This document shows, one piece after another, positions 4,926 through 62,460 of a stretch of 64,000 bases of DNA (its first letter is position 1; every line of letters begins with the position of its first letter). Source of the DNA: an uncultured Acidobacteriota bacterium. Its GTDB lineage: Bacteria; Acidobacteriota; Vicinamibacteria; Vicinamibacterales; 2-12-FULL-66-21. Under the pieces are notes generated by a model. That model saw nothing but the letters and a program-made list of their open reading frames with translations. It did not search any database and was not told where the DNA came from. The position numbers were made by a program, and so were the translations under genes. The stretch lies in the NCBI GenBank assembly GCA_963749835.1, contig CAVVOD010000003.1:976721-1040720 (forward strand), given 5' to 3'.

Positions 4926-4936
4926 CGTAAGGTGCC

Positions 4937-7243: not shown

Positions 7244-7254
7244 GAACGTCCGTT

Positions 7255-8871: not shown

Positions 8872-8933
8872 AGGGTCATCTCCTTGAAATTTCTCAACCG
8901 ACGAACACGAACCACCCAGCACATCGCACTCAT

Positions 8934-8998
8934 CACGTCGCACGTCGCACGTCGCACGGGTAGCACGTAGCACGTAGCACGTAGCACGTAGCACGTAG
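8934..8998. repeat. Tandem heptanucleotide array (CACGTCG)x3 then (CACGTAG)x5
   Basis: Read directly: cacgtcg cacgtcg cacgtcg cacgggtag cacgtag x5. Lies between the TBDR stop (9004) and the amidase start. Confidence 0.95.
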
Positions 8999-12000: not shown

Positions 12001-12165
12001 CGTGATGGCCACGCTCGCATGCGGCAACGTCGACGCGCTCTGATCGCGCACGCGGCCGGTGAAAGTTCCGCCGACGGTCTGCGCTTCGAGAACTGTTGAA
12101 GCCAGCAACACGAGACACATGGAGAGGCTCGAGCACCGCGATGCCCTCGCACGGCTAGTCGACAT
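9004..12165 (-). CDS. TonB-dependent receptor with N-terminal carboxypeptidase-regulatory-like domain (Oar-type)
   Basis: 1068-aa ORF. Internal ATG at 12165 gives signal peptide MSTSRARASRCSSLSMCLVLLASTVLEAQT. Beta-sandwich motif GFYSAPNLLPGTYDVTVTFDGF. Plug region IRELPLNGRDWTQLAMLQPGV. Long barrel ending QLGAKLLW. Confidence 0.85.
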   Translation of the reverse strand: MSTSRARASRCSSLSMCLVLLASTVLEAQTVGGTFTGRVRDQSASTLPHASVAITNVATGVVTSVITNEGGFYSAPNLLPGTYDVTVTFDGFNTQTRKGLTLTVGGEAAVDFEMKVGSVNENVVVSGDAPRIETASATLRHNVSGTTIRELPLNGRDWTQLAMLQPGVVGVGNSGGTRSGNGMKMAVAGARPSENNYRLNGIGVNDYANTTPGNALGTNLGVEAVAEFSVLTNSYSAEYGRTSGGVVNAITRSGTNQIRGTVFEFNRNSRMDSKDYFDRGSDPPPFNRNQYGIALGGPLVKNRTFWFGDYEGLREILGQTTVSTTLSPAAREGRLAAGTVAVDPQIARALALYPLPNGELLGNGDTGQYYAVRNKESRGDYGLVKLDHKLTTTGSLSGTVLFDDANVEQPDAFLMKQLADKSQRRVLMSEYSHGFGSAIVSVSRFGISRTVSKSGSIIDTMNPALTDTSLGYIPGLPIGAISVPGLAGAGGGPGAVDYATLEFTSYQGSQDLFVLRGKHSMKVGFNVEHMQNNFDTPNATGGSFSFGTLATFLQNRPSRFGALYPQSDTVRSMRETLVGAYVQDDIRWTNTLTLNLGLRYEMMTIPTEVNNKVALLKNLTDPTVTVGGKIHDSNPTLKNFAPRIGVAWDPFGDHKTAVRGGFGVFDVLPFLYLYETPLNRSTPFFLQGVALNPPAGSFPSGAYSLLGVQNLRTAWVDPNPPRAYRTQWNVDVQRQFGAWTADVGYVGARGMNLPLVERNMNTVIPRKVDGRWVYEPRATSTVLNPNFSAINTTVTWNANSNYHGLQTVLKRNLSRGLQTQTSYTWSKSIDTGSSISSVAAGTGYESAFSVATPLLPELARGLSNYDVRHNFVGSVVFEIPYSKALTGLMRNLAEGWQISGIYRAQSGFPFTVALNGDRAGSKADTTGSGLGQPPDRIMSPACATLTNPGNVNHYIKTECFAFPADGVLGNLGRNSLISPGQATLDLVLVKAQRLGRATAQLRVEMFNALNRANFATPATTIFDDRGNLTANVGVITNTRTSARQVQLGAKLLW

Positions 12166-12788
12166 AGGCAGTCCCAGTCCTCTCTTGATGCTGATCGCAT
12201 GACAGCTCACGCAGGAATCAGTTCAGATGTGCGGGTTGACGCGCGGTCTTTGAAAGCCCCTTAGCAACCGACGTACCGAGCAGGCGATCAGTTGACCGGA
12301 GAGCGTCATTACCGAACGATTCGCAGCGAGGAGTGTCGTGGCGTGGTTGCGTGAGCCGCCGAGAGCGCATGCAGAGCGGGAGGATGGCGACAGGTTTGTC
12401 GCCGTTCGCAGGATGCAGCGCCAAGAATGGTCGACGCGCACGATCGGAAGCGAGTGACGCGACGGCTCGTGTCGCGCACGATCGCGGAGCTCACGCGATC
12501 GGCGACACGCACGATGCGAGCGAATGACAGACGCCTCGCCGGCGCGGGACGTGAGCGCTATCGCGTGGCTTTGTTCACTCGTTGCTGGTCACAACCGCCA
12601 GTGATCAGAATGACTGGAGCCAGGATGCTCCGGCACGTCAGCGGCGGTTGGATCTGCAGCGGCGCGCGGCGCATTCGGCGGAATCGGTCGCCGGCACTCG
12701 GCATATCGCAAGGCGCAACCCCACCGGGCTGCCAGCCGATTCCTGACGTGTCCGGCGGTGATCCTGTCTCGTGGCAGGCCCGAAAACA

Positions 12789-24221: not shown

Positions 24222-24237
24222 ATCGGGACACCGCCAA

Positions 24238-24378
24238 ACTCGGGATTCGGGGCTCGGGATTCGGGGCTCGGGATTCGGGGTTCGGGATTCGGGATTCGGC
24301 GTCCCCGGATCCCGGTTCAGGGCGGTCCGCAGTGCCGAGTCCCGAACCGCGAGCCCCGAGTCCCGAGTCCCGATCCCC
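24238..24378. repeat. Inverted pair of heptanucleotide arrays (CGGGATT/CGGGGCT)n ... (GAGTCCC/GAGCCCC)n, able to form a long imperfect hairpin
   Basis: Left arm is cgggatt cggggct cgggatt cggggct cgggatt cggggtt cgggatt cgggatt. Right arm is gagtccc gaaccgc gagcccc gagtccc gagtccc gatcccc. Lies between two same-strand genes. Confidence 0.9.
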
Positions 24379-24396
24379 ACTCTGACGCGGTTGTGT

Positions 24397-34875: not shown

Positions 34876-35208
34876 GCGGAGCAGGAGGGCAAAATCCCAG
34901 CCACGCGCGTCTTCGGGCGCGAAGACGCTGCAACCTACTGAGACGACAGCCGTTGACGACGACCCGCTGGTGGCGCGCGCACCCGGCCCGGCGAGGCGGG
35001 TGTGCCGGTCTGAGACGAGGGAGGATCAGATTCGTAATGGCTCTTGGCCTGGGATTCGGCCTCGGGGATCCTGCCTGGCGCGCTTGACCCCGCGCATGCT
35101 GCGTGCTACATACAACCGGCATTTCGGGCCAATCACGTGAGCGGACGGAAGGGCCGACATACACAGAGGACCGGCCCGGCGCCGTCGTGTCTCCGGGACC
35201 TCGGCGTT

Positions 35209-35247
35209 GAGCTGTCAGCAACTCTGAGAGCTGATAGCTGAGAGCTC
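35209..35247. repeat. Short heptanucleotide array of the GCTGAxA family
   Basis: gagctgt cagcaac tctgaga gctgata gctgaga gctc, about 50 nt upstream of the TBDR start. Confidence 0.7.
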
Positions 35248-35294
35248 CCTTGTCGCATCCTCAATCGACACGTCTTCGATGGAATGGAGAGCCC

Positions 35295-38677: not shown

Positions 38678-40132
38678 ATGAAAACAGCCGCTTGCCTCCT
38701 GGCATCGATTCTCGTCGCGACCGCCGCATCGGCCCAGTACCATCAGACCGATTTCCCGGCCGAGGAGTTCAAGGCACGTCACGCGCAGGTCTTCGAGAAG
38801 ATCGGCGCGAATGCGGTCGCCGTCGTGCAGGGAGTGCACCAGACCGAGGGCTTCACGCTCCCCAGGCAGCACAACACGTTCTACTATCTTTCGGGCATCG
38901 AAACACCGGGCGCGTACCTGCTCCTGGACGGACGGACACGCAAAACCACCATCTACCTCCCGGCTCGCAACCCCCGGCTCGAGGCCGCCGAGGGGCGCGT
39001 CGTGTCGGCCGACGATGCGGAGCTCGTGAAGCGGATCGTGGGGGTGGATGAGGTCAAACCTCTAAGCGAGATGATCGCGTCGAGCTGGCCGCTCGGCGCC
39101 GAAGGCCGCGGGGGCGGAGGCCGGGGAGCGGCGCCGGCCGCCATCTTCGCGGAGTTCGGTCCGGCCGAGAACCAGGGGCAGAGTCGCGGCGAGCTGCTTG
39201 CGGCCGAAACGGCATGGGCGAACGACTACTGGGACGGCACCGTATCGCGCCAGCAGCGCTTCGTCGAGCTACTGCGTGTCCGGCTGCCCCGCGCGGACCT
39301 CAAAAACCTGAACCCCATCCTGGACGAGATGCGCAGCACCAAGAGCCCGCGCGAGATCGCCATGATTCGCCGCGCCTCCCAAATTGCGGGGCTGGGCATG
39401 ATGGAAGCCATGCGCAGCACGGAGCCGGGCGTGACGGAGTATCAGCTCGATGCCGCGGCGCGCTACGTATTTCTCGCGAACGACGCGCGCCTGGAAGGCT
39501 ACCGATCGATCACCGCCAGCGGCACCGAGAATATCAACAACATGCACTACTTCCGGAACGTGTCCACGCTCGCGGCCGGCGATCTGGTCCTGATGGATTT
39601 CGCGCCGGACTATCGCTACTACACGAGCGACATCGGACGCGTCTGGCCCGTCAACGGCAAATACGCCCCCTGGCAGCGCGAGCTGCTGCAATTCGTCCTC
39701 GACTATCGAAACGCGATCATGACGCGTATTCGGCCCGGTGCGACCAGCCGGCAGATCATGGACGAGGCGAAAACCGCGATGGAGCCGATATTCGCGAAGA
39801 CGAAGTTCTCGAAGCCGATCTACGAAAAGGCCTGCCGCACGCTCGTCGAGACCGGCGGCGGCGTGTTCTCGCATACCGTCGGCATGGCCGTGCACGATGT
39901 GGGTCGATACGCCGGCGAACCGCTCAAGCCCGGGCAGGTCTTCTCGGTCGATCCTCAGCTCTGGGTCCGGGAAGAAAGCCTGTACCTGCGCTACGAAGAC
40001 ACCGTCGTCGTGACCGACACCGGAGTCCAGAACTTCACCGACTTCCTGCCCTCCGAGTTGAATGAGATGGAGCGGCTGGTTCAGGAGAAGGGTGTCGTGC
40101 AGAAAGTGCCGCCGATTGCGGAGCCACAGTAA
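38678..40132 (+). CDS. Secreted Xaa-Pro aminopeptidase (M24B family)
   Basis: ATG at 38678 (MKTAACLLASILVATAASAQ). M24 metal-ligand contexts DFAPDYRYYTSDIGRVWPVNG, HTVGMAVHDVG and YEDTVVVT. The 877-aa ORF-track entry is a fusion with an out-of-frame stretch of the TBDR. Confidence 0.85.
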   Translation: MKTAACLLASILVATAASAQYHQTDFPAEEFKARHAQVFEKIGANAVAVVQGVHQTEGFTLPRQHNTFYYLSGIETPGAYLLLDGRTRKTTIYLPARNPRLEAAEGRVVSADDAELVKRIVGVDEVKPLSEMIASSWPLGAEGRGGGGRGAAPAAIFAEFGPAENQGQSRGELLAAETAWANDYWDGTVSRQQRFVELLRVRLPRADLKNLNPILDEMRSTKSPREIAMIRRASQIAGLGMMEAMRSTEPGVTEYQLDAAARYVFLANDARLEGYRSITASGTENINNMHYFRNVSTLAAGDLVLMDFAPDYRYYTSDIGRVWPVNGKYAPWQRELLQFVLDYRNAIMTRIRPGATSRQIMDEAKTAMEPIFAKTKFSKPIYEKACRTLVETGGGVFSHTVGMAVHDVGRYAGEPLKPGQVFSVDPQLWVREESLYLRYEDTVVVTDTGVQNFTDFLPSELNEMERLVQEKGVVQKVPPIAEPQ

Positions 40133-40140
40133 CTGCCTCT

Positions 40141-40188
40141 CACGTGCTACGTGCTACAGGTGCGACATGGCACACGTGCGACGTGCGA
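40141..40188. repeat. Heptanucleotide array, CTACGTG family (CGTGCTA x2 ... CGTGCGA x2)
   Basis: cacgtgcta cgtgcta caggtgcga catggca cacgtgcga cgtgcga. Fills the gap between convergent pepP-like and ADOP stops. Confidence 0.85.
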
Positions 40189-40191
40189 CTC

Positions 40192-42972
40192 TCAGTCGTG
40201 ACGGAGCGCGATCATCGGATCGATTCGCGATGCCCTGCGCGCGGGCACGTAGCCGGCCAGAAGCGCGGCGCTCACGAGTATCGCCACCGCCAGCATCACT
40301 GCCTGCGGATCGTTCGGCTTCATGCCGAAGAGGAATGATTCGACAAGCTTCGACGTCCACAGTGCCGTCGGCACACTGATCGCAATCCCTACCGCCGCCA
40401 GGATAAAGACCTCGCGCAGCACCATCCAGACGACGGTCCCACGCTGCGCCCCGAGGGCCATGCGAATCCCGATCTCACCCGTCCGTCGGGCGACGGTGTA
40501 AGCCATCGTGCCGTACAGCCCTATACAGGCGATCACCAGTGCCAGGATGGCGAAGCCCTTGCAGAGCTTCGCGAACGTGATCTCCTGGTTGATGGTCTGA
40601 TCGATTTCGGCTGCCTGCGTCTTGATGTTGGTCAGCGGAACGCGCGAATCCGCCTGGCGCACGATGTCGCGGACGGTCTTGACGTACCCGAGAGGGTCGC
40701 CCGTCGTGCGCAGGGCATACGTCATCTGCCGTACCGGAGGGACTGCACTCTGGTTGTACGGGATATAAACAACAGGAGGCGTCTGCCCCTTCAGTCCGCC
40801 GTATCGCGCATTTGCGGAGACACCGACGATCTCCATGTCGTGCGGATTGGGCCCTCCGAAGGCGACATATTGCCCCACCGGATTCTCATCGCGAAAGTAC
40901 GTCCTGGCAAAGAGCTCGTCGATCACGACTACCGGCGTCGAGCCCGCACGATCGCGCTCGTCGATCTCACGTCCCCTCAGCATGGGAATCTGCATGGTCG
41001 TGAAGAATGCGGGTCCGGTGTTCAGCACACGCGTGCCTCGTGTGGGAGTGCCGGAGACGGTCATCGGCAGTTGCCTGCCGGCACGGACGAGGGACGCATG
41101 GGACAGCGTCGCGTTGCGTACGCCGGGGATCGCCGCAAGCCGGCGCCGCAAGGTGTCATAGAAGACGGCAATCTCCGGATCCTTGTGTCCGGCCTGGCGC
41201 GCGTTCACCTCGAACAGCAAGACATGTTCGCGGTTGTAGCCAAGCGACACGGATTGCAGGTTCGAGAGTGTCCGCACGAAAAGGCCAGCCGCCACCAGCA
41301 TCAGCAGTGAGATGGCGATTTGAGCCACCACCAGGGCATGGGTCATGTTCATGCGCAGGAATCCATGCCGCGCACGGATGCGTGATGCACCCGCGCGCGT
41401 CTCCTTGAGCGCGGGGATGACGTCAGGGCGTGTCGACTGGATTGCCGGGACCAGGCCGAAGAGCGCGCCGGTGATCGTCGAGAGCAGAAAGGTCGCGCCC
41501 AGCACATGCCAGTTCAGCTCGGCTCGTAACGTGAAGTGTTCCTGTCCATTCGCCAGCAAGAGGGTCAGGAATCGTATGCCCCAGAAGGCGAACAGCACAC
41601 CGAGCGCGCCGCCCAGGGACGCCAGCAGGATACTTTCCGTGAGAAGCTGCCGCACGATCCGGACGCGTCCGGCGCCGACGCTGAGCCGTACGGCCATCTC
41701 GCGCCTGCGCGCGGTGGCCCGCGCCAGCAGCAGGTTGGCGGTGTTCGCGCACGCAATCGCGAGGATAAGGCCCACCAGGGTCAACAGCACATACAGCGGC
41801 TTGGAGTACTCGCGACGGAGGCTGTCCAATCCCGCGGCCCCTTCCCTGAGCCACAACTGCGGAAGGTTCGCTCGCTCGCGCTCGGTGGTCGCGGTGCTGG
41901 CGACCCACTGGTGAAAGCCCTGAGCCAGAGCGGACTGGGCCTGATCGAGGCTGACGCCGGGACGCAGGCGTCCCATCATCTCGATCCAATAGTAGTTCTG
42001 GTCGAGATACTCCTTCGGCGTGGCGCTGGAGCTTGACGCTGCGCCCAGGACGAGATTGGCGTGCATCGGCAGATAGACGTCAGGCACTTCCGCGGGATCG
42101 ACGCCGAAGAACTCTGCCGGCGTCACCCCCACGACGGTAACCGGGACGTTGTTGATCAGAATGGACTGCCCTGCCGCATTCGCCGGTCCCCCGAAGCGCC
42201 GTTGACTGAGCCCCATGCTGATGACGGCGACGATCGGTGCGCCCGCCCGATCGTCATCGGCCGTAATCAGGCGGCCGGCGGCGGGAGGCACGGCCAGTCC
42301 ACGAAAGAAGTCGCCGGAGACATACTCGCCGCTGGCGGCCTCGGCCTGGCCGTTGATCATCACGTTCACGTTGTCCGCCGGGTAGTACGCGAAGACCGTC
42401 GAGAAGACCGGGTCCGACTGCTTCTGGAACAGCTCGAACGCCGGGTAGGGGAAGACTCCAGACGTGGTTCCCGCCGGGTCATCACCGTACGTCCGGCCGT
42501 TTATCGAGTGCATGACAAACGGGGAGCCTCCCGCGCGATCGGTCCAGTCGATGGGGCGGCTGCGCCAGTTCAGGAGGACGAGGGATGCCGGATCGGACAC
42601 AGGCAGCGATCGCAGCAGAATCGAGTCCATGAAGCTGTAGATCGCCGTGTTGGCCCCGATGCCGAGCATCAGCGAGAGCGTGACCAGCGCCGTGAATGCG
42701 CGGTTATGGCGCATCAGGCGCAGCGCGTAGCGAACGTCCTGCGCAAGCTGTTCGAGGAATGTCCAGGTCCACAAGGCGCGCGTGCGCTCCTGCAGCAGCG
42801 TGACGTTTCCGAGGTCGCGCCGGGCAGCCCACCTCGCCTCATCGATCGGCAGGCCGTCTGCCAGACGGTCTTCGGCTTCCTCGTCGAGGTGAAACTGCAG
42901 CTCGTCGCGGAGCTCATCGTCTTTGCGGCGCCGCTTCGCCCACCAGGTCAGCCTGCGAAAAAACGGGATCAT
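40192..42972 (-). CDS. ADOP-type MacB/FtsX-like permease (no adjacent PadR)
   Basis: ATG at 42972 gives MIPFFRRLTWWAKRRRKDDELRDELQFHLDEEAEDRLADGLPIDEARWAARRDLG. Duplicated FtsX bundles. C-terminus VPARRASRIDPMIALRHD. The GTG at 42990 lies inside a repeat. Confidence 0.9.
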   Translation of the reverse strand: MIPFFRRLTWWAKRRRKDDELRDELQFHLDEEAEDRLADGLPIDEARWAARRDLGNVTLLQERTRALWTWTFLEQLAQDVRYALRLMRHNRAFTALVTLSLMLGIGANTAIYSFMDSILLRSLPVSDPASLVLLNWRSRPIDWTDRAGGSPFVMHSINGRTYGDDPAGTTSGVFPYPAFELFQKQSDPVFSTVFAYYPADNVNVMINGQAEAASGEYVSGDFFRGLAVPPAAGRLITADDDRAGAPIVAVISMGLSQRRFGGPANAAGQSILINNVPVTVVGVTPAEFFGVDPAEVPDVYLPMHANLVLGAASSSSATPKEYLDQNYYWIEMMGRLRPGVSLDQAQSALAQGFHQWVASTATTERERANLPQLWLREGAAGLDSLRREYSKPLYVLLTLVGLILAIACANTANLLLARATARRREMAVRLSVGAGRVRIVRQLLTESILLASLGGALGVLFAFWGIRFLTLLLANGQEHFTLRAELNWHVLGATFLLSTITGALFGLVPAIQSTRPDVIPALKETRAGASRIRARHGFLRMNMTHALVVAQIAISLLMLVAAGLFVRTLSNLQSVSLGYNREHVLLFEVNARQAGHKDPEIAVFYDTLRRRLAAIPGVRNATLSHASLVRAGRQLPMTVSGTPTRGTRVLNTGPAFFTTMQIPMLRGREIDERDRAGSTPVVVIDELFARTYFRDENPVGQYVAFGGPNPHDMEIVGVSANARYGGLKGQTPPVVYIPYNQSAVPPVRQMTYALRTTGDPLGYVKTVRDIVRQADSRVPLTNIKTQAAEIDQTINQEITFAKLCKGFAILALVIACIGLYGTMAYTVARRTGEIGIRMALGAQRGTVVWMVLREVFILAAVGIAISVPTALWTSKLVESFLFGMKPNDPQAVMLAVAILVSAALLAGYVPARRASRIDPMIALRHD

Positions 42973-42975
42973 GTT

Positions 42976-43023
42976 CGAATCACTAATCACTAATCGCGAA
43001 TCACTAATCGCGAACCACTAATC
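42976..43023. repeat. Heptanucleotide array (CACTAAT / CGCGAAT) in the 5' leader of the ADOP gene
   Basis: cgaat cactaat cactaat cgcgaat cactaat cgcgaac cactaat cc. Starts 4 nt upstream of the ATG at 42972. Confidence 0.9.
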
Positions 43024-43035
43024 CGTTCATTGTGA

Positions 43036-43067
43036 AGACATTCTACACATTATTCTGTAGGGTGTCT
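43036..43067. promoter_or_regulatory. AT-rich nested palindrome AGACA-tt-CTACA-N8-TGTAG-gg-TGTCT (candidate operator/promoter element)
   Basis: Read directly. It is the most AT-rich stretch of this intergenic region, about 65-95 nt upstream of the ADOP start. Confidence 0.35.
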
Positions 43068-43083
43068 ACGAGAGAGAGGATTG

Positions 43084-43157
43084 TCGGGATTCGGGGGAGG
43101 AACGGACGGTTCTGTCTCTCCGGCTCGAATCCCGAGTCCCGAAGCCCGAGCCCCCTC
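43084..43157. repeat. Inverted heptanucleotide element of the CGGGATT/GAGTCCC family
   Basis: Left arm cgggattcggggg. Right arm cgaatcccgagtcccgaagcccgagccccc. Same unit family as 24238..24378. Abuts the tannase-like stop. Confidence 0.8.
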
Positions 43158-43160
43158 GGT

Positions 43161-44717
43161 TCACCGCGTCTGGCAGGCGTAGCTGGCCGCGTCGGTGATA
43201 CTCCCCTTGCCGTCGTGCATTGCGCGCTGCGGGTACGGGCACAGCGGACGCGCATTCAGAATGCGGCCGTCCGCGCGTTTCTGCGCGATCAGGCGTTCCG
43301 GCGCCCGGCCCTGCTCGACCCATTCAGAAATAGCCGTGAACCAGTCCACGAAGTCGGGACCGGCGCCCCCGCCGCAGTGCAGCACGCCAGGCATCATGAA
43401 GAGCCGCGCGTAGTCGCGGAGTCCCGGATCCCGGACCTGCATCTGATCGTAGTAGGCGATCGTCGAGAGCGGGTTCAGCGCGGGATCCGCCCAGCCGTGC
43501 GACAGGATCAGCTTGCCTCGTCTCGCCTTGAACTTACTCAGATCGGGATCAACGGCGTTCAGGTATCTGGCGACGTCGGCCGTGTCCTTGCGCCAGTTGG
43601 CGAGGTCGTACGTGGCGTAATCCCAATCCTCGCGTCCCAGCGCCAGGTACTTGAAGAAGTGCGTGCCAAAGGCATGTTCCAGGCTGGGTGGCCCCCCGGC
43701 CGTCTCGGCGAACGCATTCATGCCCGTCACCCACGGTTGCCAGCCGCCGTCTTGCCCCTCCCCTCCGAAGGGCTGACCGGGATAGATCGTCGTGCCCTGG
43801 CTGAGGGTGGGGGAATAGACCCGTGCGATCGCCGCCCGTTGAGTTTTCGTCACGCACCCGGCGCTTGCCTTCTCTCCCGCGCACGCCGGCAGGTCGGCGA
43901 TGTTGAAGCGGCATTCGCGCGGATCGTCGAGCACGCTGTCCTTCACCTCGTCGCGAGCGTCGCAGGCCTCGAGCACCTTCGATTCGAGCAGCCGCAGGTT
44001 GTCCGAAGAGATCGCCGCCGCGTGCAGCGCCTTCGGATCCGGATACACAGCCTGCGTGTTCTTCACGAACGACGCGGCGATGTTCGTGAAGTCCAGCGCG
44101 GGCGCGCACGAGACGATACCGTCGAAGTCGGCCGGAAATCGCTGGGCCTCCATCAGCGCCTGGCGACCGCCATTCGAGCAACCGTAGAAATACGAGTACT
44201 TCGCGTCGACGCCGTAGTAGGCCTTGACGACGGCCTTCGCGATCTCCGATGTCCGATGGATCGCGAGATACCCATAGTTGATTTGCCGCTCACGGTTGCC
44301 CAGGGCCCAGCGTGCGTCCATTCCGTCCGCCTCGTGCCCGGTGTCGGTGCCGACGGTGGCGTAACCGAAGTTGACGCTGGAGATCGCCATGTTTTCGACA
44401 CTGCCGACAAAGCCGCCGCCACCGCCGGCAAAGAGCCGCTCATTCCAGCGGTCCGGCAGAAGCTCCGTGAATCGAATCTCCCTGTCGATGACGCCCGACA
44501 CCCGGCAGTGCGGCGCCCTGACGTTCCCGGTTTCGCTGGCCGCGACGGCAACCGCCTCGGTGATTCTCGCGCTGGTCAGCCGCAGGGTCGTGAGCGATGC
44601 ACAGTCCACGTGCGCCGACGGGGCGCTGCCGGCCTGCGCGAATGAAACGGGATCGGAGCTCGAGAGACCGGCGACGCTGAAGCACAACGCCGCAACCAGG
44701 CGCGGATGAAGCAACAT
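43161..44717 (-). CDS. Secreted tannase/feruloyl-esterase family hydrolase
   Basis: ATG at 44717 (MLLHPRLVAALCFSVAGLSSS). Family motifs VGTDTGH, YFYGCSNGGRQALMEAQRFPADFDGIVSCAPA, HGWADP and PGVLHCGGG. Confidence 0.85.
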   Translation of the reverse strand: MLLHPRLVAALCFSVAGLSSSDPVSFAQAGSAPSAHVDCASLTTLRLTSARITEAVAVAASETGNVRAPHCRVSGVIDREIRFTELLPDRWNERLFAGGGGGFVGSVENMAISSVNFGYATVGTDTGHEADGMDARWALGNRERQINYGYLAIHRTSEIAKAVVKAYYGVDAKYSYFYGCSNGGRQALMEAQRFPADFDGIVSCAPALDFTNIAASFVKNTQAVYPDPKALHAAAISSDNLRLLESKVLEACDARDEVKDSVLDDPRECRFNIADLPACAGEKASAGCVTKTQRAAIARVYSPTLSQGTTIYPGQPFGGEGQDGGWQPWVTGMNAFAETAGGPPSLEHAFGTHFFKYLALGREDWDYATYDLANWRKDTADVARYLNAVDPDLSKFKARRGKLILSHGWADPALNPLSTIAYYDQMQVRDPGLRDYARLFMMPGVLHCGGGAGPDFVDWFTAISEWVEQGRAPERLIAQKRADGRILNARPLCPYPQRAMHDGKGSITDAASYACQTR

Positions 44718-44782
44718 CACTGACTCCTCCACTCCGAGGCACGCGTGAGGGAACCGCGATCAGGCGGGTCGGAAGACAGGTT

Positions 44783-45022
44783 CTACTCTGGAGGCGTGTG
44801 CGAGAACCGCGCTCCCCGGTTGTCGGCCCGGTCCGTCTTGCGCCGTTCAGCGATGGTCCACGTTTCTCCGCAGGCCCCGCAGACGAGATACACGACGCTG
44901 CGTCCCAGCGTGTCGGCCCTGGCCGCGACCGCATTGCACTTCGGGCAGGACAGGAACCGGTCGACGTCACCGACGACGTTACGTGCGCTGTCCATGGCGT
45001 GCCCACGATGCCACAACATCAA
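44783..45022 (-). CDS. Small hypothetical protein with CPxC...CGxC zinc-ribbon-like motif
   Basis: 79-aa ORF (alternative start at 44995). Contains LSCPKCNAVAARADTLGRSVVYLVCGACGETWTI. No recognisable family. Confidence 0.4.
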   Translation of the reverse strand: MMLWHRGHAMDSARNVVGDVDRFLSCPKCNAVAARADTLGRSVVYLVCGACGETWTIAERRKTDRADNRGARFSHTPPE

Positions 45023-45040: not shown

Positions 45041-45112
45041 TAGCTCTCAGCTCTCAGCTTTCAGCTCCGCCCGGATGTCGAACTGATAGCTGACAGCTGA
45101 CACCTGATAGCT
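45041..45112. repeat. Inverted heptanucleotide arrays of the GCTGAxA family (CTCTCAG)n ... (ATAGCTG/ACAGCTG)n
   Basis: tagctctcag ctctcag ctttcag ctccgcc cggatgt cgaactg atagctg acagctg acacctg atagctg. The arms are imperfectly complementary. Confidence 0.85.
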
Positions 45113-45213
45113 GGCGGGTGAGGCAGGCCGCCACGAGCTCATGCTTGGAGGCGTAATGGGCGTAGAGCGAGCCTTGGCGATGCCGGCCGCGTCGATGACC
45201 CCCTGGATACGTT

Positions 45214-45245
45214 CTACGTGCTACGTGCTACGTGCTACGTGCTAC
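45214..45245. repeat. Heptanucleotide array (CTACGTG)x4
   Basis: ctacgtg x4 then ctac. The stop codon and last codons of the antiporter reading frame (..GST*) lie inside it. Confidence 0.9.
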
Positions 45246-46800
45246 CGTCCTCTTTCCCGCCGCCGGACATTTCGATCCAGTCCAGTTCCTCTTCCATCTG
45301 GTGAAACGCATCGTCGCCGATCTCGTCGCTCGCGCGCATGGCGAGCACAGCCTGGCGCGCGGCCTGAAGTGCCCGGCGGTGAAGGTTGCGGTGGGCGGAC
45401 CGGCTGGCTTCTCCCTGTTCAGAATTGGCATCTACGGATCCCAGGTGCGCGATGAATTCCTGCCGGACCGCCTCGCCGAGCGGCGATCGGTCATGCTCCA
45501 GACCGGCGAGCCCGGCACGCAGGGCGCGCTCACGCGCCGCGGCGACTTCGTGTCCGACCGGGTCGTCGTCACGCAGGTCGAGCGCACGCAGCAGCGGTCC
45601 GAGTGTGAGCCCCTGCAGCGCGAGCGTGCCGAGCACGACGAAGAACGCGGTCAGCACGATCAAGTCGCGGAACGGAAAATCCGTAGGCAACGCCAGGGCT
45701 GCCGCCAGCGTGACGATGCCGCGCATGCCGGACCACGAGATGACCAGACCGCTGCCAACCGAAGGGCGCAGCATGGGGCGTGGTGGATGAAACCCGAACC
45801 GGCGTTCCCGCCACCTGACGACCGCATTGAAGGACATGTGCCAGGCGATCCGGACGACGATGACAGTCAGGAGGACTGCGCCGGCGACGGCAAAATATCG
45901 CCCGCGGGCCGCCGGCTCGAGGCTCTCCAGAATCGGGCGGATCTGCAGGCCGATGAAGATGAAGGCCAGCACGTTCAGCACGAAGACCACCGTCTCCCAC
46001 ACGGCGTATGACGGTATGCGTATCCGCGCCGGGGTGCGCTCGGGCGCCGTCCGCGCCACGGTGATGGCGAAGCACACCATGGTGAGCACGCCTGACAGAC
46101 CAATCCGGTCGGCCAGGATCCAGACGCCGAACGTGCTGACGAACTGAAGAATGATCGCCGTCGGCACGTCGCTGCACACGGTCGGCTCAACCGCTGCGAA
46201 AGCCACGCCGAGCAGCCGGGCCGACAACCACGCTGCCGGCCACGGCGAACAGGAACGTCGGCGCAACCGCTCCGATGGAAAAGCCGTTGGCGGCGACGGC
46301 TCCCACGGCGAGGCGATAGATCAGCAGCGCGCTGGCGTCGTTCAGCAGGCTCTCGCCTTCGAGGATCGTCAGGATGCGATGCGGTGGTCTCAACGTGACG
46401 CAGCACGGCGGTCGCGGCCGCGGCGTCGGGCGGTGCGACGACGGCGCCGAGCGCGATCGCCGGCGCCCAGGGCATGTCGGGCATCAGCGCGCGCGCCACC
46501 ACGGCGACGGCGATGGTGGTGAGGCCCACGGCAAACACGACCAGGCCGGTGACGGGCGCCCAGTTGTCCTTGAGATCTCGCGGCGATGCGTCGTACGCCG
46601 CATCGAGCAGTATCGGGCGCCACGAAGAGCGCCAGGGCGAGCTCGGGCAGCACGGTGAACGTCGGCGCGCCCGGCACAAACGCGAGGATCGCCCCGCCGA
46701 GCGCGAGAAACACCGGATAGGGTGCACCAACGCGCCGCGCCGCGGCCGCCAGAAGCAGGGCGGCGAGGATCAGGCCAATGAGGGCTTCGAGTTCTCTCAT
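45235..46800 (-). pseudogene. Na+/H+ antiporter (CPA1/NhaP-type) interrupted by three apparent frameshifts
   Basis: Homologous sequence runs through four ORF-track frames. 46390..46800: MRELEALIGLILAALLLAAAARRVGAPYPVFLALGG..LFVAP. 45975..46730: ILLDAAYDASPRDLKDNWAPVTGLVVFAVGL..AVLRHV. 46187..46393: RPPHRILTILEGESLLNDASALLIYRL. 45235..46266: ..RLLGVAFAAV..SWSGMRGIVTLAAALALP... Switch points are near 46616 (GGG run), 46393 and 46220. Confidence 0.8.
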
Positions 46801-56531: not shown

Positions 56532-56654
56532 ATCCCCTCCTGCCGCCCTTCGCGGCGCGAGGATGTGACCGGTTCTGAACGGGAGAGGAGACGGGAAGGC
56601 AACGCCTGCGCGGCGTTGTGCCTTCGTACCTCCCCCTCGGAGGTCCGGTCGGCG

Positions 56655-56845
56655 TAACACGTCGGCAGGTCTTCGGACTTGCGGGCGGACGATGCAAACG
56701 CATCGCTGACCTACTGACCGTCGCTTCCCAACTCCCGTGGAGTCAGTGCTGATGACGGTGTTCGTTCCCGACTACCGCTGCGGGGCAGTCCCGGATTCGC
56801 ACCGGGTTCCCTCTTGCGACGCCTGGGGCTCAGGCGAACCGACGC
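56655..56845 (-). promoter_or_regulatory. Cobalamin riboswitch (minus strand) leading the pduO-importer-cobQ-cbiZ-cbiB operon
   Basis: Minus-strand read: agagGGAAcCCGGTGcgAAtCCGGgaCTGcCCCGCAgCgGTAg ... caGCACTGactccacgggagttGGGAAGcgacgg ... gtCCGAAGACCTGCCgac. The B12-box and flanking conserved elements are recognisable by eye. Confidence 0.8.
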
Positions 56846-56944
56846 AATGTCCTGAAACTGTACGAGTCGATCGCATCGTCTGTCAAGACGTGCATCGATC
56901 GCACCGGTGCAAAACTTCTGTTTCAGTTGACGGCGATCGCACGA

Positions 56945-57145
56945 CGGTGTTACAACCATCCTCCCTTCGGGTGCCTGCGATGGGCATAACAGGGAAGTCC
57001 GGTGAAAGTCCGGCGCGGTTCCGCCACTGTGAGTGAGGGCGTCTCGCTTCGACAACCACTCAGCGTTCGATGCTGGGGAAGGTGAAGCGGGCAGCGAATC
57101 ATCGGATTCGCACCCTCCGAGCCAGGAGACCTACCCGAGGGCGAT
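56945..57145 (+). promoter_or_regulatory. Cobalamin riboswitch (plus strand) leading btuB
   Basis: acaGGGAAgtCCGGTGaAAgtCCGGcgCgGttCCGCCACTGTgag ... caaCCACTcagcgttcgatgctGGGGAAGGtgaagcgg ... gaGCCAGGAGACCTaCCc. Confidence 0.8.
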
Positions 57146-57417
57146 AGCTGTCTTTTCTGCGGAGAACAGAAAACATGCGCTGCCCACTCCTGGCGTCATT
57201 TCCCACATCGTTTAGAACAATCCGCCCTGTCTCGCGCCGCTTAGTCCCGTAGGCACGCCGCCGTCGCGCGTCTGCTGGCCATGCGGCACCTTGCCCGCCA
57301 GGGATCCGTCCGTCGACTGTTCACCCGGCTTCACCGGTGGAGCGGGCTGACGTGCGGTCATGGCACCGACGAGCCGGCCTCTGCGCGTGCGCGCGACATC
57401 CACAAGGAGAGAACGAA

Positions 57418-59692
57418 ATGCAGAAGCTCAGTACGTTCGGGGTGCGGACGCTCACCGCGCTGATGATGATGACGTGGGCGCAGGTGGTGTCGGCGCAGGC
57501 CACGCTCACGGGAACCGTGAATGATCAATCGGGTGGTGCGATCGCGGGCGCCGCTGTGACGATCCGCGGCGTGACGGGCACACCGCCGCGAAACGTCACG
57601 ACAGATGCGACAGGCGGGTTCTCGGTTCGCGATCTGCCACCAGGCAAGTACGAGGTCCAGGTCCGTCACGACCTGTTCGACGTCACCACCACGGCCGTCG
57701 AACTGCCCGTGACACGGCCGCTGCGCGTGACGTTGAAGGTCGCCGGCCTGATCGAGCGCATGGTGGTGACCGGACGCCGCATGGAGACGCGGCTCTCCGA
57801 GACGCCGCAGAAGATCGAAGTGGTCGATGCGCAGGACATCGAGCGTTCCGTGGCCGCCGACATCACGGACGCGCTCAAGAAGAACGCGGGCGTCGATGTC
57901 GTGCAGTACAACGGCGTCCTGTCGGGAATCGGGATTCGCGGGTTCCGTCCGGAGATCTCCGGCATCAACAAGCGATCGCTGCTCTTGATCGACGGACGTC
58001 CTTCCGGCGTCACCAATCTCGCGACGCTCCTCCTGGACAACATCGATCACATCGAAGTGCTCAAGGGGCCGGCCTCGGCTGTGTACGGCGCTTCAGCGAT
58101 GGGAGGCGTCGTGAATGTCATCACGCGACAGTCGCGAGGGCCTCTGAAGGGGGGCGCCCGGGTCGCATTCGGCAGCTTCAACGCGTCGGAGCTTGCCGGC
58201 AAGGCGGGCGGCAGCCTCGGTCCCCGGCTGGACTTCGATGTGAGCGGCAGCGCGTTCAATCAGGGGGACGACTACCGCATGGGCAACGGCGTCGTGCGGC
58301 CGGCGACCACCTACACGACGTTCGACGGGTCGGCGCGGTTGGGGGCGGATCTCGTCCTCCGCATGGCGCGTCGACGGGCACGTGAACGCCTATCGTGGAC
58401 GCGATATCAATACGCCCGGCGACGTCTTCAGCGGTGTGAGCTCGCAGGGGCGGAAGAATCTCGAACGGAGGTCCGAGGATATACGCCTGTCCGGACAGGT
58501 CGGCCGGCACCTGATCTCGGGCACGTTTTACGACGCGCAGGAAGAAGGGCACCTCCGCAACGTGACCACGTCCAATCCGCTCGACCTGCCGTACCTTCCC
58601 TATCTCACCTTCGAGAACTGGTTCGCCTGGCGTGGCCTGCAGGCGAAAGACGCCTGGGGCTGGGGCGGGGCGAACAGCCTCGTCGCCGGGCTCGACTATG
58701 AGCACGTCACCAGCGACAGCCGCTCGTACGCGAGAACAGGAGACCGGCAGGCGCCCTTCTCCGCCGACAATCAGAAGGACACGATTGGCATTTACGCCGA
58801 GAACACCTTCAACCTCCGGGCCGGCCGGACCGTGGTGTCAGTCGGCGGCCGCGTCGATCGAATCGCCGTCGAGACGCGGGACACGCCGCTGAAGACGAAC
58901 TTCACGCCGTCCACGACGACGTTCACCGTGTTCAACCCGAGCCTCGGCATCAAGCAGCAGCTTGTTGCCGGCCTCCGGGCGCATGCTACCGCCGGCCGCG
59001 CGTTCGTGCCCGCGGATGCGACGGCGTTGACGGGCTATACAACCACCGTCGTGAACGGCCGCACGCAGATCAACCAGGGCAATCCCGACCTGCGGCCCGA
59101 GCGGAGCACGAGCGTTGACGCTGGTCTCGAGTGGTTCTCGCCGTCCACACACATGGACGTCACGTATTTCCAGACGACCGTCGCGGATCGCGTTGCCTCC
59201 AACGTGCTCGTGAGTAATCCCCTGCCCCCGGATCCGATTGTGCTCACGTCGATGAACACGCTGGCCGCGCACATCCGTGGACTGGACGTCGAGGCCGTGC
59301 GGCGGATGAATGCCCATGTGACGGCGTTCGCCAATATCACGCACTATTTTTCGCGCAGGGAGCAGCTGCCCACGACCGGCGAGCGCAACATTCTGAATGT
59401 GGCGACGAACACGATCCGGGCGGGCGTCGATCTCGACGTCGGCCGCCTCTCTACCCGGCTGTCGGCGCGATACGTGGACGGCAGACAGGATCAGGACTTC
59501 AACGCGGCAGGATCACCGGTTGTCGACTACCCGGACTTCGTCGTCGCCGACCTGAGCGCTACCTACAGGCTGCATCCGCAGCATGCCGTGGTGCTCACCA
59601 ACACCAACATGTCGGATGCGTACTACTACGAGAAGAAGGGGTACCCACTCGCAGGGGCGTCCTTCACGCTGAAGTATCGCCTTGGCTTCTGA
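57418..59692 (+). pseudogene. btuB: TonB-dependent cobalamin-type receptor with one apparent frameshift
   Basis: ATG at 57418 lies after AAGGAGA. Signal peptide is MQKLSTFGVRTLTALMMMTWAQVVSAQA. Plug motifs IEVLKGPASAVYGASAMGGVVNVIT. The frame fails after ..DGSARLGADL near 58345-58360 and continues in ORF 58382..59692 (..SSAWRVDGHVNAYRGRDINTPG... ending TLKYRLGF). Confidence 0.8.
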
Positions 59693-59699
59693 CAACCCA

Positions 59700-59795
59700 T
59701 TACGTGCTACGTGTTACGTGCTACGTGTCTACGTGCTACGTGTTACGTGCTACGTGTTACGTGCTACGTGTTACGTGCTACGTGCTACGTGCTAC
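59700..59795. repeat. Longest heptanucleotide array of the window: ~13 units alternating TACGTGC / TACGTGT
   Basis: ttacgtgc tacgtgt tacgtgc tacgtgtc tacgtgc tacgtgt ... tacgtgc tacgtgc tac. Fills the gap between convergent btuB and ADOP stops except 7 nt after the btuB stop, and directly abuts the ADOP stop. Confidence 0.95.
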
Positions 59796-62460
59796 TCATT
59801 CAGACCGCAGGGCGACGATCGGGTCCACTCGCATCGCGCGGCGTGCGGGGACATACCCGGCAAGCGTCGCCACGGCGGCGAGAGCCAGTGCGACAGTGGC
59901 GAGCGTGGCGGGGTCGTGCGTCGAGACGTCGAAGAGCAGCTGGCCGATCAGCCGCGACGCCGCGAGCGCGCTGGGCACCCCAACAGCCAGCCCAACGAAT
60001 GTCAGGACCAGCGTTTCGCGCAGGACCATCCGTAGTATCGCGCCGCGTGAAGCGCCGAGCGCCACGCGAACGCCGATCTCGTTCGTCCGGCACGACACCG
60101 AGTAGGAAATCACGCCGAAAATTCCGGTGGCCGCCAGGACCAGCGCCATCGCGGCAAACAGGCCAAGCAGGAACGTGCGGAACCGGGGCTGGGAGAGCGA
60201 CGCCTCCAGAACATCCGGCATCGTCGCGACGTCGGTCACAGGCAGTTCCTTGTCCAGCTTCCGCACTTCCTGCCGGATCGCCATGGCCACGCTGGATGGG
60301 CTCAGCGTGCTCCTGACGACGACATTCGCACCCCAGAAAGGCGCCTGCGCGAACGGCACGTACATCATCGGTCCGGGATCCTGACCGAGCGCGACGTCCC
60401 GCACATCACCGACAATGCCCACGATCTCGCGCTCGACCATGCCGTCCGGTGGAAATCCAAAGAGGAGCCGCTTTCCGAGCGGGTCCTGATTCGGAAAATA
60501 GGTCCGCGCCATCGCCTGGCTGATGACCGACACGCGGCTGGCTGACGCCAGATCGCGCTGATCGAAGAAGCGTCCAGCCCTGAGCGGGATCGCCATCACC
60601 CGGAAATACCCGGGACTCACGGACACGTAGTTCGCCGTCCGCGATGCGCTCGCGGAGGACGGAGGATTTCCCACGATCTCGAATGCCAGGTTGATGGTGC
60701 CGTCGGCGATCGGCCTGGGAACCGCCACGGCCGAATCCTTCAATCCCGGCGAGGCCTGGAGGTTGGTCAGCAACTCGTCGGCGAAGGCGGTCCATTGCTG
60801 CGGTGTCGAGTACCTGAAATCGCGGAAGCGAGATGTCGGCCTTCACCACGTGCTGCACGTCGAACCCGGGGCTCACCGACAGGAGATTGCCGAAGCTGCG
60901 CAGCAGCAGGCCGGCGGCGACCAGCAGGACCATCGCGAGCGCCACTTCTCCCGCCGCGAGGAGACTCCGTGCGCGGCGTCGCCCGGGGCTTTCGCCGGCG
61001 CGCCCGCCTCCTTCGCGCAGGCTCGCCTGCAGATTGGCCTTCGCGGAAGACAGGGCCGGGGCCAGACCAAATGCGCAGCTGGCGACAAGGGATAGGAGGA
61101 GCGCAAAACCGAGAACCCAGAGGTCAACACCGATGTCGTTCACTCGCGGCACACTCGGCGGAAGCAGCGAGCTCAGAACCCGAACGCCCCAGTAGGCGAG
61201 CGCCATCCCCGCAACGCCGCCAAGAAGCCCCAGCACCGCGGTCTCACTCAGCAACTGGCGGACGATCCTGGCTCGCCCCGCGCCAAGCGCCGTCCGAACG
61301 GCCATTTCGCGCGCGCGGGACGTCGCGCGCGTGAGGAGCAGGTTCGCAATGTTGGCGCAGGCAATCAACAGCACCAGCCCGACGGCGCCGAGCAGCACGA
61401 GCAACGGCGACTTCACATCGCCGACGATCATGTCCTGCAGCCTCACCCTGCGGATCTGCCACCCAGCGTTCTCCGCAGGAAAATCCTTCTCGAGACTCGC
61501 GCTGATGGCGTTCAGTTCCGCCTGGGCCTGCGCGATCGACACGCCCGGCTTCAATCGCCCCGTGACCTGGAGCCAGTGTCCCTGTCGTCGATCCATCCAG
61601 CTGCCGAACAGCGGATCCTGCACGAGCGGGATCCAGAGCTGGTCGGTTTTCGTGAGCTGGGGAAAGCGGAACGCCGCCGGCATGATGCCGACGACCGTGA
61701 ACGGACGCTTGTCCAGGCTGATGGAGCTCCCGATGATCCTCGGGTCCCCTTCAAAGTAACCGCGCCACAGGCCCTCGCTGAGCATGACGACGGGGGCCGC
61801 GCCGCGCTTGCCGTCGTCCGGCACGAACATCCGGCCCGAAAGGGGCTTGACGCCGAAGACCGAGAAGAACTCCGCCGTGACGACCGAGGTGTCCACGACC
61901 GACGGTTCCCCCCGCCCTGTCAACGTGAGCTGGTGTTTCTGACTTCCCGCCATCCCGCTGAACACGCCGTCCTGATCGCGAAGCCGCTCGAAATTCGGGT
62001 ACGACCAGCCCGTCCCCCCGATCCCATCCTGCGGTTTCGCCTGGAACACGTTGAATAGCTGGTCCGCCTTCGGATATGGAAGCGGTTTCAGGAGCACGGC
62101 ATTGACGACACTGAAGATTGCCGTGTTGGCGCCGATGCCGAGCGCGAGTGTGAGAACGGCCACGGCCGTGAAGCCGGGGTTCCGGCGCAGCATCCGGAGT
62201 GCGAAGCGGGCGTCCTGGAAGAACATCTGGACGGCGGGCAGGCCCTGGAGGTCGCGGTTGACTTCCTTCAGCTGGGCGACGCCTCCCAACCGGACACGCG
62301 CGGCGCGCCTCGCGGCGTCCGGCGACATTCCCTGCCGGATGTGCTCGTCGGTCAGCATGTCGAGATGCGTCCCGAGCTCACGCTCGAACTCCTGATCTCC
62401 ATCACCAGGCGACAACCATGTGCGAACTCGCGGACCGACGGCCTTGATGGCATCGAACAT
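59796..62460 (-). pseudogene. ADOP-type MacB/FtsX-like permease with one apparent frameshift
   Basis: N-terminal frame 60406..62460 (MFDAIKAVGPRVRTWLSPGDGDQEFERELGTHLDMLTDEHIRQGMSPDAARRAARVRLG...) is homologous up to ..ADISLPRFQ. The continuation YSTPQQWTAFADELLTNLQASPG... to VPARRAMRVDPIVALRSE is in the frame of 59796..60773. Switch is near 60806-60815. Confidence 0.8.

Follow-up and report, generated by a model that had tools for sequence, protein, structure and literature searches.

In heterocystous cyanobacteria, heptamers belonging to a few unit families are reportedly dispersed across intergenic DNA as short tandemly repeated repetitive (STRR) sequences, a class said to have been described by Mazel and co-workers in 1990; the units of STRR1–3 are CCCCAGT, TTGGTCA, and CAACAGT. 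Here we analyze tandem heptamer arrays in a 64-kb stretch (64,000 nt) of contig CAVVOD010000003.1 from an uncultured Acidobacteriota bacterium, referred to below as the window, in which an original prediction had flagged an array of CTACGTG-type units at positions 59700–59795 together with three similar sites. According to the sections of two later papers that treat the long simple sequence repeats (LSSRs) of Mrazek et al., 2007 (PMC4679880, PMC4692102), heptanucleotides are the dominant LSSR class, occur sporadically across phyla in intergenic DNA, and have been proposed to arise by polymerase slippage; the LSSR-rich genomes named in those sections are from Burkholderia, cyanobacteria, Actinobacteria, and Xanthomonas, and neither paper mentions Acidobacteriota. 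Rehm et al., 2015 (PMC4692102) described the G-rich heptamers GGGAATC in Xanthomonas and GGGGA(C/T)T in Nostoc PCC 7120, which occupy the same spacers in related species, vary widely in length and sequence, form inverted pairs, and have no demonstrated function. The direct repeats of marine Beggiatoaceae (MacGregor, 2015; PMC4679880) have one dominant unit, TAACTGA, and lie mostly just upstream of starts. The function of heptamer repeats was still speculative in a 2022 Nostoc preprint, and our full-text search of one literature library found no paper on intergenic heptamer tandem repeats in Acidobacteria.

In this Vicinamibacterales-like genome, heptamer arrays are found in the non-coding DNA at a density of about one per 5 kb, and we consider it likely that they are slippage-driven heptanucleotide microsatellites of the STRR or long-SSR class, tolerated only in non-coding DNA. 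They share the hallmarks of long-SSR and STRR-like repeats: 7-nt units joined head to tail, a period-7 excess, dispersed non-coding sites, and copy-number variation between relatives. The analogy to STRR sequences that the original prediction had drawn holds, with the arrays as an Acidobacteriota counterpart of these cyanobacterial repeats; both are tandem heptamers of few unit families at many intergenic sites of one genome. They are analogues only and not STRR sequences in the strict sense, as the best named homologs of window proteins come from Vicinamibacterales and the units are CTACGTG, GGGATTC, AGCTGNN, and others. Like prokaryotic heptanucleotide LSSRs, as characterized in the sections cited above, the arrays are tandem, intergenic, and patchy across phyla. 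GGGATTC and GGGGCTC in the window, and GGGAATT and GGGGATT in the related contig L104, are nearly the same units as the G-rich repeats of Rehm et al., and both have a strong non-coding bias, closeness to open reading frame (ORF) ends, inverted pairs, and a habit of occupying the same spacers in related genomes with variable length and sequence. In contrast to those repeats (PMC4692102), the present arrays belong to another phylum, their G-rich family coexists with ACGTGNN and AGCTGNN units incapable of forming G-quadruplexes, and divergent spacers are not depleted in our 535-kb sample. The TAACTGA repeats resemble them in having many intergenic heptamer sites and a unit that recurs patchily across phyla, but differ in that several families and no 5′-end preference are found here. 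Because the arrays match the published heptamers of Xanthomonas, Nostoc, and Beggiatoaceae, we class them with heptameric SSRs.

Heptamer arrays in the window

Using Tandem Repeats Finder (TRF) and direct reading of the sequence, we located all four of the predicted CTACGTG/CACGTAG arrays, at 8934–8998, 40141–40189, 45208–45245, and 59700–59795. They do not constitute a stand-alone family, as had been supposed, because at least seven further heptamer arrays of several unit families lie in the window (24240–24299, 24335–24378, 35208–35250, 42978–43023, 43126–43154, 45042–45067, and 45083–45113), for at least 11 sites in 64 kb. A period census of the window yielded 10 period-7 runs compared to 0.4 in dinucleotide shuffles, which excludes chance, and 0–1 runs for each of periods 4–6 and 8–13. 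No tandem period other than 7 is over-represented in the window. The units fall into at least three or four superfamilies (ACGTGNN, AGCTGNN, GGGAYTC/GATTNNN, and AATCRCK). As unrelated units share one window, the feature to be explained is the occurrence of spacer repeats of exactly seven bases rather than the CTACGTG motif.

The flagged array (59700–59795) consists of 13.4 TACGTGY units with a 14-nt superperiod, TTACGTGCTACGTG, which gave 96% matches in TRF compared to 88% for period 7. This array fills the 103-nt spacer between two converging stops, that of a BtuB-like TonB-dependent receptor (TBDR) on its left (TGA 59690–59692, + strand) and that of a MacB/FtsX permease on its right (59796–59798, − strand). 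The array predicted between a TBDR (9004–12210) and the first amidase is present in this same-strand spacer (8900–8998), with its first unit 5 nt past the TBDR stop. It comprises two homogeneous blocks at 8934–8998 (3 × CACGTCG and 5 × CACGTAG) and trails off to ~8900 as degenerate NNGTGNN units, which on the − strand reads as CTACGTG × 5, CGACGTG × 3, and ~5 degenerate units. A short, degenerate ACGTGCN array at 40141–40189 (ACGTGCT × 2.3 ... ACGTGCG × 2.3) fills the spacer between the converging stops of an M24 peptidase (40132) and a permease (40192). The fourth array (45208–45245; TACGTGC × 5.4) contains the stop codon of a Na+/H+ antiporter gene on the − strand, as predicted (TAG, 45235–45237). 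A stop codon thus lies within 0–9 nt of all four arrays; only those at 40141 and 59700, rather than three of the four, are at converging gene ends, and the other two are in same-strand spacers downstream of a stop. The spurious ORF extension attributed to the repeats (MLRATCYVLRAT...) also exists, as ORF 7255–8994. Blocks of identical variant units and higher-order periods of 14, 21, and 28 nt were seen in the arrays; variant blocks in L104, for example, include AAATCCC × 3, AACGCCC × 3, GATTCCC × 2, and GAATCCC × 2.

Turnover of arrays at orthologous spacers

Contigs of relatives at graded distances were obtained through protein searches, and the identities given here refer to proteins. Relatives at 86–95% identity carry arrays in the same intergenic regions, and these orthologous spacers differ in copy number, unit variant, and orientation, which bears out the suggestion of length-variable, slipped-strand spacers. 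The TBDR–amidase spacer is 132 nt in the window, compared to 127 nt in L101 and 124 nt in L102, two fully syntenic contigs with 93–95% amidase identity that have a degenerate period-7 array with a GTGC core in place of the perfect unit blocks of the window. In relatives at 86% and 83% identity, this spacer measures 46 and 26 nt, respectively, and holds no array. The array is thus a gain of this lineage and dispensable to the operon. At the flagged site, the spacer is 103 nt in the window, 58 nt in L106 (94% identity; degenerate and mostly inverted units, GTAGCAC), and 87 nt in L107 (90%; CGTGCGA × 3); L108 (83%) has a different neighboring gene and no array. The antiporter stop is inside a CACGTAG array of 4.5 units in the window, 3.5 in L105, and 2.5 in L103, and the permease–M24 peptidase spacer is 59 nt in the window compared to a degenerate 42-nt version in L105.

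The tannase–permease spacer has a common layout in the window, L105, and L104, consisting of an array, an inverted array, a promoter-like block, and an array in the 5′ untranslated region (UTR) that runs up to the permease start codon. In the window, an inverted GGGATTC-type pair (43085–43154; predicted fold −34.9 kcal/mol) lies directly 3′ of the tannase stop (43161, − strand) and 5′ of the promoter-like block, with CGAATCC/CGAGTCC units at 43126–43154 and a partial inverted copy at 43085–43098. The block, in which a promoter-like TAGACA-17-TAGAAT falls within CGTAGACNCCCTACAGAATANTGTGTAGAATGNCTNCACAATGA (43040–43068, − strand), is kept in all three genomes (L105 ~4975–5020, L104 ~11666–11712), and the arrays on either side of it have turned over completely. 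The 5′ UTR array of the − strand permease gene (42978–43023; AATCACT/AATCGCG with a 14-nt superperiod) has the units GATTAGT/GATTCGC in the window, GATTAAT/GATTGTT in L105, and GGGAATT × 3 plus GGGGATT × 5 in L104. It overlaps the listed GTG start of the permease (42990), but the L105 ortholog aligns from 42972, which would place the start codon directly beside the array. The one predicted −35/−10 block is therefore flanked by arrays rather than containing one, and the arrays lie outside ORFs. Phase-variation SSRs of host-adapted pathogens are similarly tandem repeats that are prone to slippage and differ in copy number from strain to strain, but those repeats are located within the 5′ ends of ORFs or separate the −35 box from the −10 box in surface-antigen genes, and we rejected a phase-variation contingency role.

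Free drift of units between orthologous arrays, as in GGGGATT and GATTAGT at the same 5′ UTR, also bears on the idea that the arrays are multimeric sites for a protein with a 7-nt footprint, such as a nucleoid-associated protein, a cold-shock-type OB-fold protein, or another single-strand-binding regulator, with different binders for different unit families. A few unit superfamilies do recur at unlinked loci, a GTG/GTGC core persists in degenerate units, each heptamer of a direct repeat is bound by one CspB protein according to work cited in PMC4679880, and the 2022 Nostoc preprint speculates on a heptamer-binding partner. We judge protein binding to be a quite improbable explanation given this drift and the dozens of unrelated units within one phylum; in addition, GTG conservation at array edges largely reflects partial terminal units, and no candidate protein was linked to the arrays in the window.

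Some arrays adjoin deletions or decayed genes. L103, the closest relative by tannase (95% identity), lacks the 2.8-kb permease gene; the tannase and M24 peptidase stops are 10 nt apart (L103 3556–3604 compared to window 40124–43164), and this deletion begins and ends where the outer edges of the arrays lie in the window. A ~100-nt TetR pseudogene fragment (45111–45208), 91% identical to codons ~40–72 of the intact L103 TetR, has arrays on both sides. It is adjoined by two facing AGCT arrays (45042–45113), AGCTCTC × 3.7 at 45042–45067 and AGCTGAY × 4.4 at 45083–45113, which are inverted and form an imperfect hairpin (minimum free energy [MFE] z = −2.4 on the − strand). Downstream of the intact TetR gene in L103, CAGCTAT/CAGCTCT/AGCTGAG arrays make up a palindrome. 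The corresponding place in L105 holds a TetR remnant that has decayed differently, and gene order around the antiporter is not the same in L103, L104, and L105. Taken with the frequency of inverted pairs, these cases could indicate that arrays mark past DNA breakage and repair or promote it: structure-prone repeats would stall replication, giving rise to deletions and rearrangements, or the units would be filler that a repair polymerase adds at break junctions. This possibility appears very slim. Only one or two events were seen, and, because breakpoints must fall in spacers and many spacers carry arrays, coincidence is likely. Moreover, most arrays occupy fully syntenic, unrearranged spacers, and the regions flanking heptamer repeats in Xanthomonas were found to be more, not less, stable (Rehm et al., PMC4692102).

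Compared to intact orthologs in relatives, the window contains five frameshifts: the BtuB-like receptor (57463–59692, + strand) has one, close to a run of GGGGG at ~58340, the MacB/FtsX permease (59796–62460, − strand) has one at ~60814–60827, and the Na+/H+ antiporter (45235–46800, − strand) has three. The receptor and permease that flank the flagged array thus have one frameshift each relative to their L106 orthologs. All three frameshifted genes adjoin heptamer arrays, and the other long genes of the window are intact. These frameshifts are either real pseudogenes or long-read indel errors, so that the exact copy numbers in the window are provisional. Indel errors of this kind could be taken to mean that the arrays themselves are assembly or sequencing artefacts. 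We regard this as extremely improbable, as arrays occur at orthologous positions in independent JGI, ENA (k141 short-read), and Logan assemblies and CTACGTG × 3 is found in cultured isolates, among them Streptomyces, Paraburkholderia, and a complete Vibrio chromosome.

Position, orientation, and folding of the arrays

To place arrays relative to genes, we used our own heuristic codon-usage gene caller, trained on high-GC sequences, on 65 sequences totaling 535 kb. Only 10 of 149 arrays fell in called coding sequence, although 84% of the DNA is coding. By spacer type, 80 arrays were in tandem, 25 in divergent, and 18 in convergent spacers, compared to 216, 63, and 63 spacers, respectively, a difference that was not significant (chi-square ~1.3). 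For the CTACGTG family alone, these numbers were 38, 17, and 7. The proposed association with 3′ ends and converging genes was not recovered, as convergent spacers accounted for 18 of 123 arrays and 63 of 342 spacers, and arrays also occupied divergent promoter regions and a 5′ UTR.

Several observations would nevertheless fit arrays that act as functional RNA or DNA structures at gene ends, either as factor-independent or bidirectional terminators, insulators, or stabilizers of mRNA 3′ ends, in the manner of the repetitive extragenic palindromic (REP) sequences and bacterial interspersed mosaic elements (BIMEs) of enterobacteria. Besides the 0–9-nt distances in the window, 46 of the 98 arrays that lay in tandem or convergent spacers were no more than 15 nt from the nearest upstream stop, convergent spacers often had two inverted arrays, each against one of the stops, CTACGTG-family arrays showed a transcript-sense orientation bias (28:13), and one inverted pair has a stable predicted fold. 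That pair (24240–24378) is formed by a G-rich array of 8.6 TCGGGAT/TCGGGGC units (24240–24299) and its inverted CCGAGTC partner (24335–24378), which together make a long hairpin. For 24236–24382, predicted folding energies ranged from −91 to −106 kcal/mol, with −91.3 kcal/mol corresponding to z = −6.5 relative to shuffles, and z was −4.1 and −5.9 relative to genomic windows. The G-rich arm (GGGATTCGGGGCTC...) has runs of 3–4 G every 7 nt and is the only array with a predicted G-quadruplex motif (four or more runs of three or more G, with 1–7 nt between runs); the CTACGTG arrays have no G-runs.

Other results speak against such a role, and we consider gene-end structures an unlikely explanation. 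Divergent promoter spacers hold 25 arrays and 4 of the 22 same-family inverted pairs (tandem spacers hold 11 and convergent spacers 4), and the presence of inverted pairs in all three spacer types argues against a dedicated terminator function. No hairpin followed by a T-tract overlapped any array examined, so that none has the G+C-rich hairpin directly followed by a U/T tract that defines an intrinsic terminator. Folding is predicted for the CTACGTG arrays as well (for example, 103 nt of RNA at −37.9 kcal/mol), but it is ordinary, with MFE z-scores of −1.1 to +0.6 relative to dinucleotide shuffles and −0.3 to +1.1 relative to random genomic windows of the same length. Consequently, neither the terminator or insulator role nor the unusual self-pairing put forward in the original prediction found support. 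Self-complementarity is not a general property of the units either; in 76 other units, 4-nt palindromes and self-complementarity were at the level of random heptamers, and we rejected the self-complementary ACGT core as the cause of the arrays. Finally, the same operon lacks an array in the 83–86% relatives, and unit sequence, G-runs, and orientation vary between orthologous arrays.

REPs and BIMEs are likewise abundant, intergenic, often located past stops or between convergent genes, and capable of forming hairpins, but REPs are imperfect palindromes of 20–40 nt with conserved sequence that are mobilized by REP-associated tyrosine transposases (RAYTs), whereas the arrays are simple repeats without conserved ends. 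The flanks of 56 CTACGTG arrays showed no conservation beyond partial repeat units, and without conserved flanks, ends, or terminal inverted repeats, an origin as a REP-like element or miniature inverted-repeat transposable element (MITE) was rejected.

Origin of the arrays and their occurrence in other genomes

Persistence of sites with turnover of their content, blocks of variant units, de novo gain, and confinement to tolerant sequence together point to microsatellite-like evolution by slippage or unequal exchange, and from them we infer slippage as the mechanism and near-neutrality. An array would begin in a short spacer. Slipped-strand mispairing or unequal exchange would then lengthen, shorten, and homogenize it in place by 7, 14, or 21 nt at a time, and point mutation would bring about its decay. 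Selection would remove arrays that disrupt promoters or ribosome-binding sites and those inside genes, where 7-nt steps shift the reading frame, leaving survivors against stop codons or in decaying pseudogene DNA. Nearby inverted copies would probably come from template switching, with long hairpins as a by-product.

A number of results weigh against slippage as the whole account. Neutral slippage alone explains neither the exact 7-nt period nor the reappearance of the same few unit superfamilies in unlinked spacers, with ACGTGNN making up 4 of the ~11 sites in the window. The length (124–132 nt) and GTGC core of the TBDR–amidase spacer are kept in three genomes. Same-family inverted pairs make up 22 of 66 neighboring array pairs within 200 nt. 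In same-strand spacers, 33 of 80 arrays were within 15 nt of the upstream stop and 12 of 80 within 15 nt of the downstream start, with median distances of 29.5 and 56.5 nt, respectively, keeping in mind that start-codon calls are less reliable than stop positions; constraint on the promoter and ribosome-binding side would be expected to produce such closeness to the upstream stop. CTACGTG-family arrays were oriented 28:13 in favor of CACGUAG in the transcript sense (binomial p ~0.03). This bias was not tied to stop closeness, since within 15 nt of a stop the split was 11:13, and we therefore rejected a stop-codon backstop, in which UAG in all three frames would cap read-through, as the main explanation. 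These points leave room, at low probability, for a sequence-specific process or a weak function. One such possibility, which we think improbable, is a dedicated sequence-aware process that could seed and amplify heptamers and their inverted copies in non-coding DNA, rooted either in a transferable factor or in some property of an enzyme of replication or repair. The hairpins formed in this way, able to slip in register, would then modulate read-through, the stability of mRNA, or rearrangement nearby. Such a process is suggested by the strict period, the recurring families, the inverted pairs in every kind of spacer, and the distribution of CTACGTG × 3 across unrelated phyla.

An exact scan for CTACGTG × 3 in one genome per GTDB species returned at least 97 loci. 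Among the matches listed, 38 loci came from ~17 Acidobacteriota/Vicinamibacterales metagenome-assembled genomes (MAGs), several with 4–6 loci each, and 14 came from Chloroflexota; the rest of those listed were from Patescibacteria, Planctomycetota, Gemmatimonadota, Actinomycetota, Campylobacterota, Beggiatoaceae (Thioploca and Parabeggiatoa MAGs), and various Proteobacteria. The cultured isolates mentioned above are among the matches. None of the listed loci overlaps the window, and they carry additional period-7 arrays built on other units. The 38 listed Acidobacteriota loci (284 kb) contained 105 period-7 runs compared to 0–13 for periods 4–6 and 8–12, and one period-7 array of a unit other than CTACGTG per 4.7 kb. 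These loci were chosen for carrying CTACGTG × 3 and the scan had no control heptamer, so we make no claim that CTACGTG exceeds other units. In viral contigs, a poor proxy, CTACGTG × 3 had 0 matches compared to 16 for the same-composition control CTGACTG × 3, which lends no support to a universal propensity of CTACGTG to expand. Tannase relatives in metagenomes were found on three short contigs (74–82% identity) with other neighbors and no arrays.

Same-family inverted array pairs were also seen in Gemmatimonadota (Longimicrobiaceae) and Chloroflexota MAGs (L007 1225–1292, L077 1795–1962, L001 1823–1976, and others), and the inverted-pair habit is thus not specific to Acidobacteriota. GGAAGCT/GGGAGCT arrays at L101 19371–19434 (9 units) and L105 2880–2915 belong to the AGCTGNN superfamily, as do the facing AGCT arrays of the window and the array at 35208–35250 (AGCTGTC ... 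AGCTGAT AGCTGAG AGCTCCC), which lies in a divergent spacer ~45 nt upstream of a TBDR start (35295). Unit superfamilies are therefore common to the lineage at non-orthologous sites.

Neighboring genes and significance

By Pfam, the genes that flank the arrays are of ordinary metabolic and transport types: CarboxypepD_reg-type TBDRs, three tandem amidases, duplicated MacB/FtsX permeases, an M24 peptidase, a tannase, and the Na+/H+ antiporter. The best named homologs of the amidase are Vicinamibacterales MAG proteins, and the G+C content of the window is 64–69%. The three amidase paralogs (2619–8871, − strand) lie downstream of a CarboxypepD_reg-type TBDR and are syntenic in L101 (10001–16250); in L125 and L126, which are more distantly related, the amidase genes number only two. 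Directly upstream of the tannase is a conserved small ORF of ~70 amino acids with two CxxC pairs (CPKCNAV...CGACGETW), zinc-ribbon-like and with no Pfam hit (window ~44780–44990, − strand; L103 1726–1938; L105 2986–3198). A search of the window against Rfam matched only two cobalamin riboswitches (RF00174), back to back and divergent at 56647–56858 (− strand, 102.5 bits) and 56952–57152 (+ strand, 96 bits), and no known RNA family at the arrays. The + strand riboswitch is upstream of the BtuB-like receptor whose gene ends at the flagged array.

Why some lineages carry spacer repeats of exactly seven bases is a question that dates from the description of the cyanobacterial STRR sequences. The Vicinamibacterales, an abundant soil lineage, are a rich case, with ~1 array per 5 kb. 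Metagenomes hold graded relatives in which single arrays can be seen to arise, homogenize, flip orientation, and decay, and this series makes their rates and mechanisms measurable by comparative genomics. The arrays are also an annotation hazard, because they create spurious ORF extensions and can supply stop codons, and they are natural length-variable markers with which strains can be told apart in soil metagenomes.

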